64,000 bases of DNA, taken from NCBI RefSeq assembly GCF_025370785.1, contig NZ_JAMXFA010000001.1, positions 107,902 through 171,901 of the forward strand. Direction: 5' to 3'. The position numbers and the translations under genes were made by a program. Each line of letters begins with the position of its first letter. Within the stretch, counting starts at the first letter, position 1. The notes below the pieces were generated by a model. That model searched no databases. It had not been told where the DNA came from and was given only the letters and a program-made list of their open reading frames with translations. This document shows positions 6,672 through 63,067 of this stretch, piece by piece. The DNA is from Laspinema olomoucense D3b. GTDB lineage: Bacteria; Cyanobacteriota; Cyanobacteriia; Cyanobacteriales; Laspinemataceae.

Positions 6672-7084
6672 TTTGAATCAGCACTTAAGCTCCCTAGCTT
6701 CCTGAGAAAGTAAGGTTTAGGTTGGGTCATGCTCGTTCTCTTTTCAAGACAGAAGAACGACTGAAGTCGTTACTACAAATGGAGGCTAACCGGGGAGGAC
6801 AACTTCCTGAGTTTTTTAAATTCACCGGAATGACTTTAGCAGTTCGGCGGGTTTTTGTAGTAAGCACTTCACTGCTGTCTTCATTAAAATTAATATGAAT
6901 CATTAAGGATGAGCAACAGAAAACTCCCGACCCAGAGTCGCGAGTCACCCCCGAGGCCCTAAACAGCCTACGGCCCCACCGAGAGGTTTGGCGACTTTTT
7001 CGCCAGATTGGCGTGAAACGATCCCAATTCGCTTTACACTCATATTCAGTATTTTGTCGAATTCTGTATCTGACTGAGCTAACC

Positions 7085-7813
7085 GTGCGAAAAATCATTC
7101 TGGCCGGTAATTGGAAAATGTACAAAACCCAGGCAGAAGCCCTGGAGTTTTTAGAGGGGTTCAAACCCAACGCAGAGGACGCCCCGGAGAATCGGGAAGT
7201 GGTTCTGTGCGTGCCATTCACTGCTTTAAGCGATCTGTCCAAGAATTTGCACGGGAGTCGCATTCGCCTAGGTGCTCAGAATATTCACTGGGAAGAAGCG
7301 GGTGCCTATACGGGAGAAATTTCTGGCCCGATGCTGACGGAAATCGGCGTGCGGTATGTCATTATCGGGCATAGCGAGCGTCGGCAATATTTTGGGGAAA
7401 CCGATGAAACGGTGAACCTGCGCCTAAAAGCAGCCCAGAAATATGGACTGATTCCCATCCTCTGTGTAGGTGAAACGAAGGAACAACGCGCCGCTAACGA
7501 GACGGAATCTCACATTTTAGGTCAACTGGAAAAAGACCTGGTAGATATCGACCAAACCCAGTTGGTGATTGCCTACGAACCAATTTGGGCGATCGGGACT
7601 GGGGAAACCTGTGAACCTGACGAGGCAAACCGAGTGATCGGGTTGATTCGCTCAAAATTGGACAATAAAGAGGTCACGATTCAGTATGGTGGATCGGTCA
7701 AACCGGATAATATCGATGAATTGATGGCACAGCCGGAAATTGATGGAGTATTGGTCGGTGGAGCCAGTCTCACCCCGGATAGCTGGGGCAAAATTGTCAA
7801 CTATCGCGCTTAG
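7085..7813 (+). CDS. tpiA: triosephosphate isomerase
   Basis: The N-terminal motif (V)[11 protein letters not shown] is present, along with the catalytic [12 protein letters not shown] and the loop GGSVKPDN. The start is a GTG at 7085, and the in-frame upstream ORF portion (7013-7084) lacks homology. Confidence 0.88.
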
Positions 7814-7956
7814 GTTGAAGGGATAACGGTTCATTTCCGAACCGGAATCCATTCTCCGAATCATGCAGGAGGGGCGCTCTGCGGTGCGCCCTGGACTGTC
7901 TAGGGAAGAAACCCGCAAGAAACCCGCACCCTGGAAGCGGGCTAAAACCATCCAGA

Positions 7957-8163
7957 AACCCGCACCCTGGAAGGGTGGGGCTATATGAACAAAGCCCGAG
8001 AAGCGCGGGCTAAAGAGAAAATTTTAAAAACTAAATGGGGTATGAATCGTTATCCCCCGTTCACAGCAAATCATGCCCAATTCGGTTATTAAAAGTCGAT
8101 TTTCTGTATTAGCCTGCGTAGGCAGGCTTTGTCCGTAGAGCCCCACCCTTGAGGGTGCGGGTT
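7957..8163. mobile_element. MITE-like element with ~25-bp terminal inverted repeats
   Basis: The left end aacccgcaccctggaagggtggggct (7957-7982) pairs with the right end agccccacccttgagggtgcgggtt (8139-8163) with a single mismatch. The internal core agcccgagaagcgcgggctaaagagaaaa...ttttaaaaac is shared with the MITE at 62631-62951. A direct repeat of agaaacccgcaccctggaag lies upstream. Confidence 0.45.
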
Positions 8164-8234
8164 TTGATAAACCTTTCAAAACCGAATTCCGTATCACTCG
8201 TTAACCCCTATCTCTCAAAAGTCATTAATCCTGG

Positions 8235-9104
8235 ATGAATCATCAACCCTTGCCGCTGAGGATTCGCGATCGCCCGTTTGTGTGGGGTCAGCGGACCTAT
8301 TTGATGGCGGTCCTCAACGTTACCCCGGATAGTTTTAGTGATGGGGGCGAATTTAACACCCTGGAGACTGCGGTTACTCATGCCAAGGCGTTAATTAACG
8401 CCGGTGCCGATATTTTGGACATTGGGGGCCAGTCCACGCGACCGGGGGCCTTGGAAGTCTCCTTAACAGAGGAACTGAATCGTGTGGTTCCGGTGGTGCG
8501 ATCGCTTCGAGAAGACCCCGGTTTCGCCACCTGTCCCATTTCTATCGATACCTCGCGATCGGCTGTAGCAAAAGCTGCCATAGAAGCGGGTGCAGATATT
8601 GTCAACGATGTGACTGGGGGAACCGGGGACCCAGAAATGTTCTCGGTAGTGGCAGCATTAGGCGTCCCCTTCGTCCTCATGCATAGTCGAGGCACTCCGG
8701 AAACCATGCAAAAACTCACCCATTATCAGGATTTAATCGGGGACATCACAGAATTTTTCACCGTTCAAATTCAGAAGGCAACTGCTGCCGGAATTCAACC
8801 CTCTCAAATTATTCTCGATCCGGGGATTGGGTTTGCTAAAACCTGGGAGCAGAACCTGGACCTGATTAGAAACTTATCCCAGTTTCAAACATTAGGCTAT
8901 CCCCTGTTAGTCGGCCCTTCTCGTAAAAGTTTTATCGGACATCTGGTCAACCAACCCGACCCCAAACAGCGAGTCTGGGGAACCGCTGCCGCTTGTTGTG
9001 CGGCGATCGCCACTGGCAGTACCGATATCCTCCGCATCCATGATGTTGCTGAAATGCACGACGTTTGTCGGGTGGCTGATGCCATTTATCGACCCAAAAC
9101 CTAA
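8235..9104 (+). CDS. folP: dihydropteroate synthase
   Basis: The pterin-binding motifs LMAVLNVTPDSFSDGG and DIGGQSTRPGA are present, as is the C-terminal ILRIHDV. Confidence 0.9.
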   Translation: MNHQPLPLRIRDRPFVWGQRTYLMAVLNVTPDSFSDGGEFNTLETAVTHAKALINAGADILDIGGQSTRPGALEVSLTEELNRVVPVVRSLREDPGFATCPISIDTSRSAVAKAAIEAGADIVNDVTGGTGDPEMFSVVAALGVPFVLMHSRGTPETMQKLTHYQDLIGDITEFFTVQIQKATAAGIQPSQIILDPGIGFAKTWEQNLDLIRNLSQFQTLGYPLLVGPSRKSFIGHLVNQPDPKQRVWGTAAACCAAIATGSTDILRIHDVAEMHDVCRVADAIYRPKT

Positions 9105-9970
9105 GTAGGATTCGAGCCATTTCCCGGCGGACTGGGGGGAGGATTTCCTCCTGGGGGGGTAGGATTATTCGGATTAGTCAGGTGTTGGCCAATTTCCGGC
9201 GTATAAATCAGCTCTGATAGGGTATCATTTAACGCCTTGGGATCCATAAAAATTACCTTAGAATTAGGACTTTTACTCAGTTCTTGATTCGCATCCACAT
9301 AGCGTTTAGCCAGCAAATATCTCATCACTTCTGTGGTTGTCATCTGAGGTTGTAGCAAGTCTAAAATCAGTTGCACAGACTCGGCAGTTGCTTCAGCATC
9401 AACAATAGTTGCCCGTTTGCGAATTTCCGAAGCGCGTTGCATTTCCATTGATTCTAAAACCGTTTTCGGCGGGTCAAGGTCTTGAACTTCCACGCGCAAA
9501 ACTTTAATTCCCCAACTAAATGTTGCTTCATCTAAACTTTTTAGCACCCGCTTATTAATCTCCTCCGTGGAATAAAAAGTTTCCTCCAATTCCATGTGAC
9601 CAATGGTCGAACGCAGGGTGGTTAAAACCAGGTTTTTAATCGCTAAATTGATGTTATTGATCTCATAATAGGCTTTTTGCAAATCCATGATTTTCCAATA
9701 GACTACCGCATCTAATTTAATAGCGACGTTATCTTTGGTAATGGCATTTTGAGGCGGGACATCTAAAACTTGTTCCCGAGTAGTATCTACTACCACGATA
9801 CTTTCGACATAAGGAAATACCAAATTAGGACCGGGACTCAGTTTGCGATTAAATCGGCCTAACCGTTCAACTAAGGCTTCGTTTCCTTCATTAATAACTT
9901 TAACGGCGCTCACGGTATAACCGAGAATGCCAAAAATTAAGGGAACTACAAAAGCAAAAAATGTATTCAT
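9101..9970 (-). CDS. SPFH/band-7 (stomatin/prohibitin-like) membrane protein with a Pro-rich C-terminal tail
   Basis: An N-terminal transmembrane segment is followed by VKVINEGNEALVERLGRF and an SPFH core. Its stop codon overlaps the folP stop (shared CTAA at 9101-9104). Confidence 0.85.
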   Translation of the reverse strand: MNTFFAFVVPLIFGILGYTVSAVKVINEGNEALVERLGRFNRKLSPGPNLVFPYVESIVVVDTTREQVLDVPPQNAITKDNVAIKLDAVVYWKIMDLQKAYYEINNINLAIKNLVLTTLRSTIGHMELEETFYSTEEINKRVLKSLDEATFSWGIKVLRVEVQDLDPPKTVLESMEMQRASEIRKRATIVDAEATAESVQLILDLLQPQMTTTEVMRYLLAKRYVDANQELSKSPNSKVIFMDPKALNDTLSELIYTPEIGQHLTNPNNPTPPGGNPPPSPPGNGSNPT

Positions 9971-10206
9971 AATGCAGGATATCAGCCCAAAATAATCTCA
10001 AAAAATGCTGAAATTTTAGGCCCAACTTAGAGAAATAGGGCGAGAGTTTAATTCCTGAAGCAATCCCGATGTTTTTGGTTCAGGAATAGGGGGAAAAAAT
10101 CTCTAAGACAGGTATTGTCTCTAGTTTAATCGGTTTGTGAAGGTTAAGCATCCGTACAAGGGCGATCGCATCTTAAACACAGGATGCGATCGCCCTTGTC
10201 AATGCC

Positions 10207-17011: not shown

Positions 17012-17264
17012 CGGGTTTTTTTAGGATTTTACTGTTTTTATGATACGTCAAACTTTACCGCAATTTCGGAGGGATATTGCTTAGAGGTTAACGAGGCGAT
17101 CGCAGGGTTGGGGTTGAATGGGGGGAACGATTGAAGTCGTTACTACGAACGAATAAAGAGAACGAGTGAAGTCATTTCCCATAAGACTTTCAGTCGGTTT
17201 TAACCGACTTAAGCTATGAGGCGGGGGTTTTAACCCCTGCCGGGTTTTTTTTGGATTGAATCAA

Positions 17265-43230: not shown

Positions 43231-43833
43231 ATGAACACAGACCCCAAAACTATGATTGAGATATTCGGAGATTTCATTCAAAATCCGCCTTTGGGCACCG
43301 AGTATTTAATTCTGGGATTCTCCCCGAGTTCGGCCTCTATTAAAACTCGCTGGCGAAATAATGGCTTATCAGCGGACTTTGTAGCCAACTACTTATCCAC
43401 TTTTTTTGGTGATAGTGAAAATCAGCAGAATCCCGGGCATAAAAAAGCGGAAAGCGCTGAGATTGTCAACTATATCGCCAATGAGTTATTAGAAAATGCT
43501 ATGAAATTCAGTGATTCTACATTGCCGGATCCCACGACCCTGGAAATTCATTTATATGAAGATTCTATTATCTTAATGACTAAAAATGGTATAAATGCCA
43601 AACAGGATGCGGAGTTGCGGGCCTTCATTGAGCGCTTAACGGTTTCTGAACCGGAAGAGTTGTACCTAGAACAGTTGGAAAAGAATGCAGAAACCGACAA
43701 CCACAGCAATTCAAGAGTAGGTTATTTGACTATTATTAATGATTATCAAGGTAAAATAGGGTGGCAATTTGAACGGACTCCCGAAGAATCTCCAGGCATT
43801 TCTTTGACGACGATGGTTACTTTATTATTGTAA
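43231..43833 (+). CDS. small protein with a GHKL/histidine-kinase-type ATPase N-box (anti-sigma-factor-kinase-like or slr1658-type regulator candidate)
   Basis: The N-box-like motif is ANELLENAMKFSD, and Gly-containing segments occur downstream. The gene is AT-rich and isolated, flanked by a long non-coding region. Confidence 0.45.
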   Translation: MNTDPKTMIEIFGDFIQNPPLGTEYLILGFSPSSASIKTRWRNNGLSADFVANYLSTFFGDSENQQNPGHKKAESAEIVNYIANELLENAMKFSDSTLPDPTTLEIHLYEDSIILMTKNGINAKQDAELRAFIERLTVSEPEELYLEQLEKNAETDNHSNSRVGYLTIINDYQGKIGWQFERTPEESPGISLTTMVTLLL

Positions 43834-44117
43834 TTAAAGTTATTCAGTAAAAAACTTGGATAAAAAAGTAGTAAATAAAGGGCGAGGTTTGGTTTATTTA
43901 TAACGGATATTACCAGGGTTTAATCGGAACAAGCGGATTTTAGGGAGGCAGGGGGAAGGGGGATAAATTTCCGGGAGATTCCTACTCCAAAACCACTTTG
44001 CCGTTTAAAGTTTAGGAACTCCAAGGAGAGCAGTTGCTTTTAAAAAAGGGGGTCAAGGTGAAGTCGCTTTAGTCGCTTTATTGGATGGACTTGATGTCAC
44101 TTCACCCCCTTAGAACA

Positions 44118-44150
44118 TAAAAACCCGGGGTAAAAAACCCGGGTTTTTAT
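44118..44150. terminator. bidirectional rho-independent terminator
   Basis: The perfect stem aaaaacccggg/cccgggttttt with loop gtaaaaa is flanked by A and T runs. It sits between the convergent genes 43231-43833 (+) and 44354-45910 (-). Confidence 0.55.
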
Positions 44151-44353
44151 GTTCTAATATCAAGTCTGTTGGATTAAACTAAAAAAACAGTTTTTCCTCT
44201 TCTCCCCCGGACAGGAATAAAAAATTGGATTCTTTTCTCTCTCCTTTGAGGAGAGGGCGTTAAGAGAGGGGGTTCGGGGGGAAAGGGGGTTAGGTCAGTA
44301 TGGGTGAGGCAGCCAACATGATATAAGGGGTTCATGTGGGAATTGGGGACAAC

Positions 44354-45910
44354 CTAGTTCAGTTGACAGAACTTGCGATCGCGGTCCGAATCCGGTTCTT
44401 GCCAAGAATAGGCAAAGTGACTGACGGAGTTAATCCGGGAAGAATAGCGCCGTAAGGCATACATTTGGTCTTCTAAAGGCGGTCGATTGGTGACTGCAAC
44501 GCCCCAATCTCCAGCTAAAGCCGGGATGACCTCGGTGCCTTCAGGAGCCATGCTTAAAACCCGCTCAACTTCTTCCATAATACAATCAGGTTTTTGGCAA
44601 TTGGCATAAGACATTGGATGCCATTCCATCTCCGGCAAAAAGCGATCCCAAGCTTGTAACCTCGAATCAAATCCCCCTTGACCAACGGGACGATTACCCC
44701 CGGGAAAAAAGACGGCCCCGGAAGGGATTCCTTGAGGTCGAACTTGGTCTACAGCCAGGTGGACAAAATCAATAATTCCTTGCACGGCATGAGCGACACT
44801 GAGATACCAGAGTTGCCATTGTAGGAGGGGCAGACGTTCCCCAGGGGTTCCCATTGTTTTAGCTCCAGGGGGGACATTCCGCCCTTGCCACATCGGTTCT
44901 GCTTCATTGGGATAGAGTGCATCGACCGCAGCAATATCATTCGCGGTAATGGAGCCTTGGGTAACGTAGCGCCGGATTAATTCCTGACCTTTCTGGTTGA
45001 GACCCCGTTGCACGAGGGTTTGCTGGGATGCTTCACTGTAGATCCAGAGGTCCGATGGCTTGGTGACGACGGAAGCAGGGCCGACGCCCCGTAGATAGCG
45101 GACATAATCAAATAACATCCCGTCCGGTTTGCGCTTGAGGATTTCCCGGATCACCCCCGCATAGTCTTGACGCGCTTGAGGACTGTAGGGGTCGATAAAG
45201 GCATGATTGGCATGACTTTGACCGACCTGTTCATGCAAGCTGGGGTCCTGCATGACGGTGAGGGTGGTGTGTCCTTGCCCATTCCGAGCGAGGGCTCCTT
45301 GGCGGTCGGGGAGTTGGGAGTAGCTATAGCCAAAGTTGATGGTGAACAACCAGGCGTAGACCTTGAGGCCGCGTTCTTGGCCTTTTTTGATACCTTCAGC
45401 CAGGAGATCGGCATTTTCATAGCCAGGGACTCGAACGACGGAAGGCCAAGGGGTGTTATTTTCGGCCTGGGGTAGGAGGGCTTGGCCGTCATAAAAGGCT
45501 TCGAGATAGACTTTGTTGTAGCCCTTGTTAACGATTCTATCCATGAGAGCATCTAGGGCTCCGGGTTGGAGATCGCAAGGATACAGGCGTAACCAGAGGG
45601 CTTGATTTTGGGGCCAAGTTTGCTGACGACATTCCTGTAAGCGTTCGGCTTCTTTGACCAGAAAGGCTTGATAGCGATCGCGAGCAGCCTGATCACCTTC
45701 GAGGGAGGCTTGGCGCAGTTGTTCTTTTTCGGCGATATCTGCTGGAGAAGCCAGACAGGACCCTTGAACTTGGGAATGGGCCGGTTGGCTCCAGAATGTA
45801 GGACTCACGATCGCGGTTAGAACCGTTGCCAGTAAACCGCGATAAAAATGCTGCCAGTCAAGCGTCATCGCTGTTTTAGGTTTAAAAGATTTTTTGAGAC
45901 GATTAGACAT
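44354..45910 (-). CDS. GHL10 (glycoside-hydrolase-like 10) family protein, secreted/lipoprotein form
   Basis: It has an N-terminal signal, NKVYLEAFYDGQALLP...LKVYAWLFTINFGYSY and a TIM-barrel-like core. It is a paralog of 24742-25890 and 52390-54126. Confidence 0.65.
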   Translation of the reverse strand: MSNRLKKSFKPKTAMTLDWQHFYRGLLATVLTAIVSPTFWSQPAHSQVQGSCLASPADIAEKEQLRQASLEGDQAARDRYQAFLVKEAERLQECRQQTWPQNQALWLRLYPCDLQPGALDALMDRIVNKGYNKVYLEAFYDGQALLPQAENNTPWPSVVRVPGYENADLLAEGIKKGQERGLKVYAWLFTINFGYSYSQLPDRQGALARNGQGHTTLTVMQDPSLHEQVGQSHANHAFIDPYSPQARQDYAGVIREILKRKPDGMLFDYVRYLRGVGPASVVTKPSDLWIYSEASQQTLVQRGLNQKGQELIRRYVTQGSITANDIAAVDALYPNEAEPMWQGRNVPPGAKTMGTPGERLPLLQWQLWYLSVAHAVQGIIDFVHLAVDQVRPQGIPSGAVFFPGGNRPVGQGGFDSRLQAWDRFLPEMEWHPMSYANCQKPDCIMEEVERVLSMAPEGTEVIPALAGDWGVAVTNRPPLEDQMYALRRYSSRINSVSHFAYSWQEPDSDRDRKFCQLN

Positions 45911-49184: not shown

Positions 49185-49359
49185 AAGGCGATCGCCCCTG
49201 GTACAATTCACTCCACTTTAACCCGGTTTCCCCTCAGAAGCCGGGTAATTTTTCACGGATTTTCCACAAGACTACAGTCATGAGCTTTCTTCTTTTGTAG
49301 TAACGATTTCAGTCCTTATCCCCCACCCCAACATTCCTAATAACAACATCTTTTACCTG

Positions 49360-54126: not shown

Positions 54127-54322
54127 CTTTAAATTGGATTAAATTAGCCCCCCACCCTCAAAGGCGGGGCTATCAGAAAAAAGCCCTCCTGAGCGGGCTT
54201 TTTTTATTGCTCATAGTCACAACTGCCGTCGTTTCTTCCATACCGCAGTAAAATAGGGGGTAAAAATTGTTATATTAAATTAAAGAATATCCCATTGAAT
54301 GGGAGTGTTTCGAGGTAAAATA

Positions 54323-58329: not shown

Positions 58330-58897
58330 TCTAGCAGACCTCGATTATCCCGAGGATTCGAGGATACTTTTTCAAGGTCAAATTTTGAGTCAGTTTGCGA
58401 CTCAAAACGACCCCAATGATTTAGACTAGAAATCACGGTCTGGCCTGGGTCGGAAAATCCCCCGAGGATGCGACTCCCCTATTCCCTCAAAAAGACGGAA
58501 TCTGGTTTACCTGGGTCGGCTAAATCTGCCCCATCAAGAGTCTGGGGTTTGCTGACAAAGCCTGCCCCAGCTACGGCTGTCAACATCAAGCAGGTCTTTG
58601 ACAATGGGATTTAGTCGGAGACAGTTACCCAGATTATGGCCCTTTCCTTGGTGGTGAGGGCTACAAATTTTGTCAAGAAAGCCGGTAACCATTCCTGGGA
58701 TGTAAGGCTGTAAGGCTGCCCTGGTAAGATGGAGGCAAAAGAGGTAATTCCTGTTTCAGAATACTCTACTCTGAAAAACCCCAATTTATGAAGGATTATT
58801 TAATCCAAATTGAGATTTTTTTCAGCAAGAGAGATAAAACTAGCAGGAATGAGGGAGATAAATAATCTAAAAAAAGGGTGCATAAATAGGAAAAGTT

Positions 58898-62578: not shown

Positions 62579-62630
62579 TTGGTCATTGGTCCTTTGTCCT
62601 TAGTTGATGGGGAGGACTGGGAAGATTTTT

Positions 62631-62951
62631 CGTAGTAACGACTTCAGTCGTTTCCGCCTTACTGGCCTTTATACGGAATCCGGTTGTGATAGGTCTATAA
62701 AAACCTGCAGCGTCCAGCCCGGAGGCTACACAGACGTAGACGCGCTAGCGGCTTCGGTGAAGGGTAGCCCGAGAAGCGCGGGCTGAAGAGAAAACCGACT
62801 TTTAAAAACCGGATTTGGTATTACTCCAAGTAACGCGATCCTTAAAGAGGCGATCGCGCCAGTCCCCAAACAACAGGTACTTAATCCGCTCAGGGATAAG
62901 TGTCATGGCGTCCGCCATCACAAGAGAGCAACGACTGAAGTCGTTACTACG
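62631..62951. mobile_element. MITE (~321 bp) with perfect 22-bp terminal inverted repeats
   Basis: The left end cgtagtaacgacttcagtcgtt (62631-62652) and the right end aacgactgaagtcgttactacg (62930-62951) are exact reverse complements. The interior carries the core agcccgagaagcgcgggctgaagagaaaa shared with 7957-8163, and there is no plausible CDS inside. Confidence 0.55.
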
Positions 62952-63067
62952 AACAATCTCCTCAATCCTCCCTATAGCAGTCTGACCTGCACCTGGGAAC
63001 CGGGGGTGGGTATCAGTTTTTTGATTGAAATCCCCATTCATAAGACGGCCAAAGACTCTTCAATGGC

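Follow-up and report, generated by a model that had tools for sequence, protein, structure and literature searches.

GTAG-tagged REPs are defined as hairpins in which a stem of 6-13 bp closes on a short TY loop and one terminus is GTAG, and this tetramer (or a degenerate GYAG or GTRG) is found at one end of more than 90% of them (PMC3733652). The tag is both a hallmark of REPs and the cleavage site of RAYT, and REP subfamilies typically show complementary changes in their stems (PMC3733652). In A. variabilis, dimers of the GTAG-15 REP have been described inside long palindromic frames (TATAGGAnTnnnATTTGATTnnTGAAA--TTTCAnnAATCAAATnnnAnTCCTATA; Di Nocera et al. 2013, PMC3733652), and this is the closest published description of the repeats reported here. 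Among bacterial MITEs, Nezha is accompanied by a 10-bp direct repeat (for example CATTATCTAC; PMC6042816) and has TIRs in common with ISNpu3 (PMC3184786).

We analyzed a 64,000-nucleotide stretch of the Laspinema olomoucense D3b genome (contig NZ_JAMXFA010000001.1, positions 107,902 to 171,901; hereafter the window, within which all coordinates are given) and compared it with loci around folP from other cyanobacteria (designated L002, L003 and so on). The results make it probable that the spacer between tpiA and folP has been pieced together, as a mosaic, from non-autonomous mobile repeats that all belong to one family, and that the element inserts as one unit and duplicates a TNA target. The element itself is likely to be a lineage-specific MITE with a REP-type core, set in a BIME-like mosaic.

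The tpiA gene (7013-7813, +) and the folP gene (8235-9104, +) enclose a 421-bp spacer at 7814-8234, the bounds of which had been placed correctly in the initial annotation. Relatives of the encoded FolP at 93-96% identity are those of Laspinema palackyanum D2a, Laspinema sp. D2d and several Laspinema or Oscillatoria MAGs. The spacer had been read as a MITE-like element in which a 25-bp inverted repeat enclosed a core similar to that of a second element at 62.6 kb. A repeat search recovers two overlapping pairs of inverted-repeat arms, at 7956-7979 and 8141-8164 (24 nt, 79%) and at 7971-7996 and 8125-8150 (26 nt, 88%), which join into arms of about 41 nt (7956-7996 and 8125-8164); the inverted repeat is thus real, with arms longer than the 25 bp first reported. 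When 7956-8164 is compared with its own reverse complement, 72% of 217 aligned nt agree (E=4.5e-28); folded as single-stranded DNA, the segment reaches -60.5 kcal/mol (z=-8.35), a value equalled by 0 of 200 shuffles. The reported core similarity of about 80% to the 62.6-kb element is likewise reproduced, with 78.7% over 61 nt between 7993-8048 and 62766-62826 (E=2.7e-8). The window contains exactly two occurrences of the 18-mer GCCCGAGAAGCGCGGGCT, where shuffles predict 0.05 matches with up to three mismatches. Two further matches to the 62.6-kb element, both in the opposite orientation, had been missed: 8131-8194 against 62735-62671 (75%) and 8073-8118 against 62821-62777 (80%). The extra tandem copy noticed upstream is also present, one base away from its first-reported position, as two tandem copies of the 20-mer AGAAACCCGCACCCTGGAAG (7918-7937 and 7954-7973), and the repeat search returns a 90% direct repeat at 7909-7937 and 7945-7973. 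Each of the three reported features (inverted repeat, tandem 20-mer and match of about 79% to the 62.6-kb element) lies far above chance.

To define the element, we aligned its copies in the window and in the related strains. The full element is non-coding, 120-150 bp long, and consists of imperfect TIRs of about 27 nt (consensus TAC[C/G][C/G]AAT[C/T]CGGTT[G/T]T...) around a twin-hairpin core. Two GC-rich hairpins that differ in sequence follow one another in the core, first hp_a (AGCC[C/T]GC-loop-GC[G/A]GGCT) and then hp_b' (CCCCACCC-TTNA-GGGTGCGGG), separated by a linker of about 12 nt that ends in GT[A/G]TAG, and hp_b' is usually followed by a T-run. In the family alignment (A3), the order reads from the b-side arm through hp_b (CCCGCACCC-TCAA-GGGTGGGG), the linker CTACAC..ACAAAG, hp_a (CCCGC-CTGC-GCGGG) and the linker CTAAAG.. 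to the a-side arm. The stem of hp_a has 7 bp and that of hp_b' has 7 pairs with one mismatch, with loops of 4-7 nt in the element hairpins, placing both within the 20-40-bp length and 6-13-bp stem of REP stem-loops. The same organization can be described as a repeating unit of about 60 nt, in which an AT-rich arm (ATAC[C/G][C/G]AAT[C/T]CGGTT[G/T]T.AAAG...) is followed by a GC-rich hairpin ending in GGCT, two units being paired in inverted orientation with their arms outermost and their hairpins innermost.

Searches with a profile of this unit (nhmmer) give five clear matches in the window, with E-values from 2e-10 to 1e-16: 8048-7990(-), 8068-8131(+), 8199-8135(-), 62668-62731(+) and 62827-62763(-). 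These correspond to the copies described below, two of which are complete, with lengths of 120 bp (8074-8193) and 149 bp (62672-62820). In each complete copy, about 19-20 of the first 27 nt agree between both ends by hand count, and the ends are conserved among copies in the TIR scan and in alignment A3. The only ORFs that overlap the region are spurious (41-57 aa).

Within the tpiA-folP spacer, the sequence points to three copies in differing states of decay. Immediately 3' of the tpiA stop codon, and outside the mobile repeats, lies a hairpin (GGGCGC-TCTGCGGT-GCGCCC; 7872-7891, +) that is kept in 7/7 Laspinema-clade spacers, with a single loop substitution in L008; it forms the left boundary of the variable zone. 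The first copy is a collapsed twin-hairpin core at 7918-7943 (+), in which the left half of hp_b is joined to the right half of hp_a (AAACCCGCACCCTGGAAG|CGGGCT). This remnant, which is the extra tandem copy of the initial annotation and is also found in L007, presumably arose by deletion within a core, and would represent a third core that has collapsed. The second copy, D1 (7956-8042, -; nhmmer unit 8048-7990; covariance model R1 7955-8018(-), 67 bits), lacks the b-side TIR; it runs from hp_b (7959-7980) through the linker ATATGAACAA and hp_a (7993-8011) to an a-side TIR that ends in ...GGGGTA at 8042 and is followed by TGA. Orthologues of D1 are found in L006 (L. palackyanum D2a) and L003, and L008, which is more distant, retains a decayed trace of it. 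D1 is probably an old insertion from which one TIR has since been lost.

The third copy, D2 (8074-8193, +), is a complete 120-bp MITE, identified by nhmmer (8068-8131(+) and 8199-8135(-)), covariance model R1 (82.9 bits), TIR scan and alignment A3. Its left side comprises the a-side TIR (8074 to about 8100), hp_a (AGCCTGCGTAGGCAGGCT, 8111-8128) and the linker TTGTCCGTAGAG, and its right side comprises hp_b' (CCCCACCCTTGAGGGTGCGGG, 8141-8161), a T-run and the b-side TIR, which reaches CCGTA at 8193. Comparison with empty sites defines the left and right target-site duplications of D2 as TCA at 8071-8073 and TCA at 8194-8196, and its right junction is common to L004 and L007. D1 and D2 lie in opposite orientations, and D2 would be the later insertion. 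The long palindrome in the spacer exists because D1 faces D2, and the 25-bp repeats that had been taken for TIRs are the hp_b hairpins of these two adjacent, opposed copies. More generally, the long hairpin is formed by the TIRs or by two opposed elements, and not by pairing between hp_a and hp_b'.

Elsewhere in the window, covariance model R1 detects a twin-hairpin core without the TIR frame at 54145-54206 (-; 40.5 bits, E=2.6e-8), and nhmmer detects a weak, decayed single arm of the element at 58554-58622 (-; E=0.004). The former sits between genes of the GHL10 and Uma2 families, and A7 and T6 runs on either side of its hp_a give it the look of a bidirectional terminator. A perfect hairpin with a 20-bp stem at 44110-44157 (TTAGAACATAAAAACCCGGG-(8 nt)-CCCGGGTTTTTATGTTCTAA) bears no relation to the repeat family; the genes on its two sides, 43231-43833 (+) and 44354-45910 (-), are convergent.

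The locus at 62.6 kb holds a complete 149-bp copy of the same MITE at 62672-62820 (-; nhmmer 62668-62731(+) and 62827-62763(-), TIRs, alignment A3), bearing out the relation of the spacer repeat to this element. The copy is flanked by TTA at 62669-62671 and TTA at 62821-62823 and lies opposite in orientation to D2. It contains an additional insert of about 27 nt between its hairpins, which recurs in a copy in L004 (about 1890-1976), and its hp_b is decayed. The sequences that the initial annotation had taken as the left and right TIRs of the 62.6-kb element actually belong to an unrelated repeat, the GTAG-tagged REP hairpin hp_c, which is present here twice, at 62630-62652 (TCGTAG-TAACGACTTCAGTCGTT, +) and, inverted with respect to the first copy, at 62930-62952 (-). 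The two ends are 89% identical over 46 nt and form a head-to-head dimer with the GTAG tags outside. The puzzle of two TIR pairs around one core therefore dissolves, the "different TIRs" belonging to a neighbouring repeat family; the shared core is likewise no cargo, being one arm of the element (the TIR with its subterminal hairpin). The complete copy would have landed between two REP hairpins of another family. The alternative suggestion of nested insertions came close. Near this repeat cluster, synteny breaks at about position 62979, where homology with L004 (399-720) and L007 (447-768) stops; the ABC-ATPase gene adjoins ftsZ in the window, but SWIM/SNF2 genes in L004 and L007.

The hp_c hairpin reads (T/C)GTAG-TAACGACT-TC-AGTCGTTA, with a stem of 7-8 bp and a TC loop, and on this sequence it appears to fit the published definition of a GTAG-tagged REP. 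About 25 distinct hp_c sites are present in the Laspinema-clade sample, with a 5' GTAG in about 21 of the 25, and solo copies (GTAG-TAACGACTTCAGTCGTTA) lie in the window at 6755-6779, 17125-17150 and 49294-49324. In L. palackyanum D2a (L006, 18982-19141), five hp_c copies are arranged in tandem with a 35-bp period; a CRISPR-like reading of this run was rejected, its spacers being constant. For the element hairpins, the tag of hp_b' is GTRTAG or GTAGAG in 13 of 17 cases, with an exact GTAG directly against the stem in six, and hp_a has no GTAG tag.

Comparison of the element junctions with those of related strains reveals matching 3-bp flanks in 3/3 complete copies: TCA|TGCCC...CCGTA|TCA for D2 (8071-8196), TTA|TACGG...TGGTA|TTA for the 62.6-kb copy (62669-62823) and TGA|TACC...CCGTA|TGA for the complete copy in L002. 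In Laspinema-clade DNA, TNA precedes 17 of 20 element ends. The D2 site is filled in the window (...GCAAA[TCA]{120 bp}[TCA]CTCG..) and empty, with a single TCA, in L002 and L003 (...GTCAA[TCA]CTCG..) and in L006 (..GTAAA[TCA]CTCC..). From this filled and empty pair, it follows that the element inserts as one unit, arms included, and duplicates 3 bp (TNA). The sample behind the target-site duplication is small, with three complete copies plus a single clean empty site, and if the T and A are counted as part of the element, agreement of the middle base alone has a chance probability of about 1/64. An alternative parse of the ends, in which the target is TA as for IS630-type elements, disagrees with the empty site and was rejected. 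A comparison of L002 (20364-20483) with the window around 18567 was also discarded as a clean empty site, since a 4-nt indel together with the TIR-like remnant TTGGCATTACTCC obscures its junction. With TIRs, a target-site duplication and an empty site in a relative, together with dispersed copies, the original view of the repeat as MITE-like and mobile holds.

The dispersal of the element was assessed with an HMM of the unit on 81 loci around folP, in which matches are confined to Laspinema-clade loci. With an iterated HMM, the approximately 190 kb of Laspinema-clade DNA give 31 unit matches at about eight independent sites, and the 73 folP-region loci of other cyanobacteria (about 1.2 Mb; nhmmer) contain none. 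The full element is thus found in Laspinema-clade DNA only, at about eight sites that vary among strains. An exact 28-mer of the core has 0 matches in a collection of genome contigs that does not include the source assembly.

The spacers that carry these repeats differ strongly among strains. The tpiA-folP spacer measures 203, 206, 239, 283, 421, 560 and 975 bp in seven strains, with differing repeat content. In the spacer between the Band_7 and DUF1400 genes, four strains (L002 11780-11956, L003 3808-3925, and also L005 and L018) carry a copy of the element without most of one arm in place of about 95 bp, a sequence that is retained by the window (10004-10110) and four other strains; in L002, the core of this copy is duplicated in tandem. 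Such replacements and partial copies at several sites indicate that recombination and deletion also shape these loci. The 975-bp tpiA-folP spacer belongs to L002, the closest MAG, and contains at about 9150-9900 an extra ORF, absent from the window and the other strains, that is rich in pentapeptide-like repeats (ANLQ.A.L..ANL) as judged by eye. The tpiA-folP spacer of L003 contains two more palindromic inserts (about 1720-2030), one with GTGTAGGGGCGCAAGCATTGCGCCCC hairpins and the other bounded by GGACTTACGCAG...CGCTTAAGTCC, which are probably further small mobile repeats. Element-bearing spacers are therefore strain-variable hotspots and possible typing markers, and inverted repeats of this type in Laspinema are best parsed through the element ends TNA|TAC..GTA|TNA.

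The twin-hairpin core has a broader distribution. The module TTAGCCCGCGCAGGCGGGCTTTGT..GTRTAGCCCCACCCTTNAGGGTG[C/T]GGG is present in nine JGI metagenome contigs (G+C 35-50%, HIP1 in 7/9), most of them without arms of the Laspinema type, and in plasmids of Gloeothece citriformis PCC 7424 and Calothrix PCC 7716, and the covariance model built from the core adds Tolypothrix (51.7 bits), the L008 spacer and the window copy at 54145-54206. This distribution suggests that the core predates the TIR frame and has spread more widely. The idea that the similarity might be limited to the two loci first compared is contradicted by dozens of family members, at about eight sites and in other cyanobacteria. 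The structural conservation of the core was confirmed as well: 97.9% of stem cells are paired across 20 copies, compared with 31-57% in slid controls, four stem pairs have changed on both sides (C-G to U-A and C-G to G-C), and 0 of 500 shuffles reach the observed covariation score. The hp_b side of this alignment is partly biased, since many rows were retrieved by an hp_b pattern, whereas the changes in hp_a are free of this bias. These compensatory changes imply that the hairpins are under constraint, in line with what has been described for REP subfamilies, and with the stems kept paired, the hairpins would likely be what a nucleic-acid-binding enzyme or the RNA decay machinery recognizes.

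The presence of REP-type hairpins brings up a different account of their mobility, according to which a RAYT (an IS200-like HUH tyrosine transposase) moves the hairpins themselves as elements of the REP or REPIN type, with the AT-rich "TIR" frame as a preferred palindromic target or a passenger. The account draws on the RAYT cleavage tag, which hp_c displays 5' at nearly all of its sites and hp_b' in a GTRTAG-type form in 13/17, on the cores without frames in other cyanobacteria and at 54145 in the window, on the complementary stem changes between subfamilies that are typical of REPs (PMC3733652), and on the view of Di Nocera et al. that in A. variabilis REP dimers have inserted into palindromes (PMC3733652). 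Against it, hp_a carries no such tag, and alignment A2 shows hp_a and hp_b' to differ in sequence and to be each self-complementary, not the inverted copies of one another that a REPIN needs. Single-strand transposition of the IS200/RAYT type is not known to make a target duplication, which is at odds with the 3-bp duplications of all three complete copies and with an empty site that is devoid of frame and hairpins alike. Moreover, tblastn with YafM and IS200 queries, a weak test that covers about 3% of a genome, detects no Y1 transposase in the Laspinema-clade loci; the single match, to an IS200-like ORF, comes from an unrelated locus of Coleofasciculus. We consequently regard movement of the element by a RAYT as unlikely.

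The preferred reading, a MITE that inserts as a unit with its REP-type core, would instead invoke a cut-and-paste transposase of the DDE type acting in trans, as suggested by the TNA duplication. Three-base TNA duplications are typical of some groups of the IS5 family (IS1031) and of PIF/Harbinger elements; for IS1031, we found no citable statement of this in the literature. Pfam searches identify no transposase among 40 ORFs of the window, none was found in the sampled loci of relatives, and an autonomous IS with the element TIRs was found neither in the window nor in those loci. A more speculative extension, to which we attach low confidence, is that a cross-order REP dimer was captured in Laspinema between the TIRs of a TNA-duplicating MITE, so that REP hairpins might spread by a cut-and-paste transposase instead of, or besides, a RAYT. 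In organisms without Rho, the core might then persist by serving as a portable module for RNA 3' ends or termination.

The initial annotation had also proposed that the core could be a small structured RNA or regulatory module, and the constraint on the stems bears directly on this proposal, in which a portable intrinsic terminator, 3'-end stabilizer or small RNA is retained for its function. Compensatory stem changes and strong folding agree with it, as does the TTTTTAT that follows hp_b' in many copies and gives them the look of an intrinsic terminator; D2, downstream of tpiA, reads as two hairpins and a T-run, and the copies at Band7-DUF1400 and 62.6 kb are likewise co-oriented with an upstream gene. 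Across the eight independent sites, however, three copies are oriented with the upstream gene, four against it and one lies in a divergent promoter region, and the terminator scan does not call D2, which led us to reject termination as a general role. Rfam searches of the window at the gathering threshold return three tRNAs only and no family for the element, and no sigma-70-like promoter was found at either the spacer or the 62.6-kb locus. The best sub-threshold Rfam matches are CRISPR-DR28 (29.4 vs 35 bits) and MIR8562 (31 vs 211); the DR28 matches are hp_a hairpins, and a CRISPR-repeat reading was rejected as there is no array. The orientation tally and the presence or absence of the element at the same locus in close strains together favour a selfish element. 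Nothing supports an independent small RNA, and retention of the core for a structured-RNA or regulatory function seems very unlikely to us; an effect on tpiA or folP transcripts, through 3'-end stabilization or partial termination, would be a by-product. For annotation, this means that the tpiA-folP and ftsZ-ABC spacers should be treated as harbouring selfish repeats and not RNA genes. Finally, even though the individual hairpins are short and the sub-threshold CRISPR-DR28 and miRNA-family matches illustrate how easily spurious matches arise, chance similarity of low-complexity GC-rich palindromes can be dismissed almost entirely in view of E-values of 1e-8 to 1e-28 in the window and dozens of members with a conserved non-palindromic linker and TIR.

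Set against the known systems, the Laspinema repeats share with GTAG-tagged REPs, BIMEs and REPINs their short GC-rich imperfect palindromes with a GTAG-type tag (clearly in hp_c, approximately in hp_b'), the complementary stem changes by subfamily and the mosaics of types and orientations within one spacer. They differ from all of these in possessing TIRs and a target duplication, with no RAYT found. In these respects, the element resembles the bacterial MITEs (Correia/NEMIS, RUP, ERIC, and from cyanobacteria Nezha and MaeMITE), which are also non-coding, 120-150 bp long, bounded by TIRs and target-site duplications, intergenic, variably present among strains and able to fold as a long hairpin. 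It is set apart from Nezha by description, its duplication being 3 bp (TNA) and not 10 bp, with no parent IS found; in addition, nhmmer returns no unit matches in the 8+ Nostoc/Anabaena loci.

The resemblance to the A. variabilis frames is closer. In both cases, two GC-rich hairpins of REP type lie within an AT-rich inverted repeat of about 27 nt, in intergenic cyanobacterial DNA and with no unoccupied frames known. The frame TATAGGAnTnnnATTTGATTnnTGAAA is present in eight Nostocales loci (L016, L033, L039, L064 and L072 among them), with varied cargo that includes runs of the GGCAATA heptamer. One Nostoc copy (TATAGGAATCCGGTTTGATTTCTGAAA, L033) has TATA.GGAATCCGGTT in common with the Laspinema TIR; homology between the two frames is suggestive by eye in this copy, but nhmmer detects none at E<0.01, and the similarity is kept as a lead. 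The differences are also clear: GTAG-15 has loops of 9-15 nt (PMC3733652) as opposed to 4-7 nt in the Laspinema element; the Nostocales frame bears other cargo, such as heptamer repeats, where the Laspinema frame holds the twin-hairpin core; and the Nostocales frame shows no TNA duplication, its flanks fitting TA if anything. A MITE-like frame such as that of Laspinema bears on the unexplained REP dimers in palindromes of A. variabilis. Unlike the named MITEs, the Laspinema element has as its core a REP-like hairpin dimer that spans cyanobacterial orders, and the occurrence of this dimer in a MITE-like, target-duplicating frame bears on how REPs relate to MITEs.
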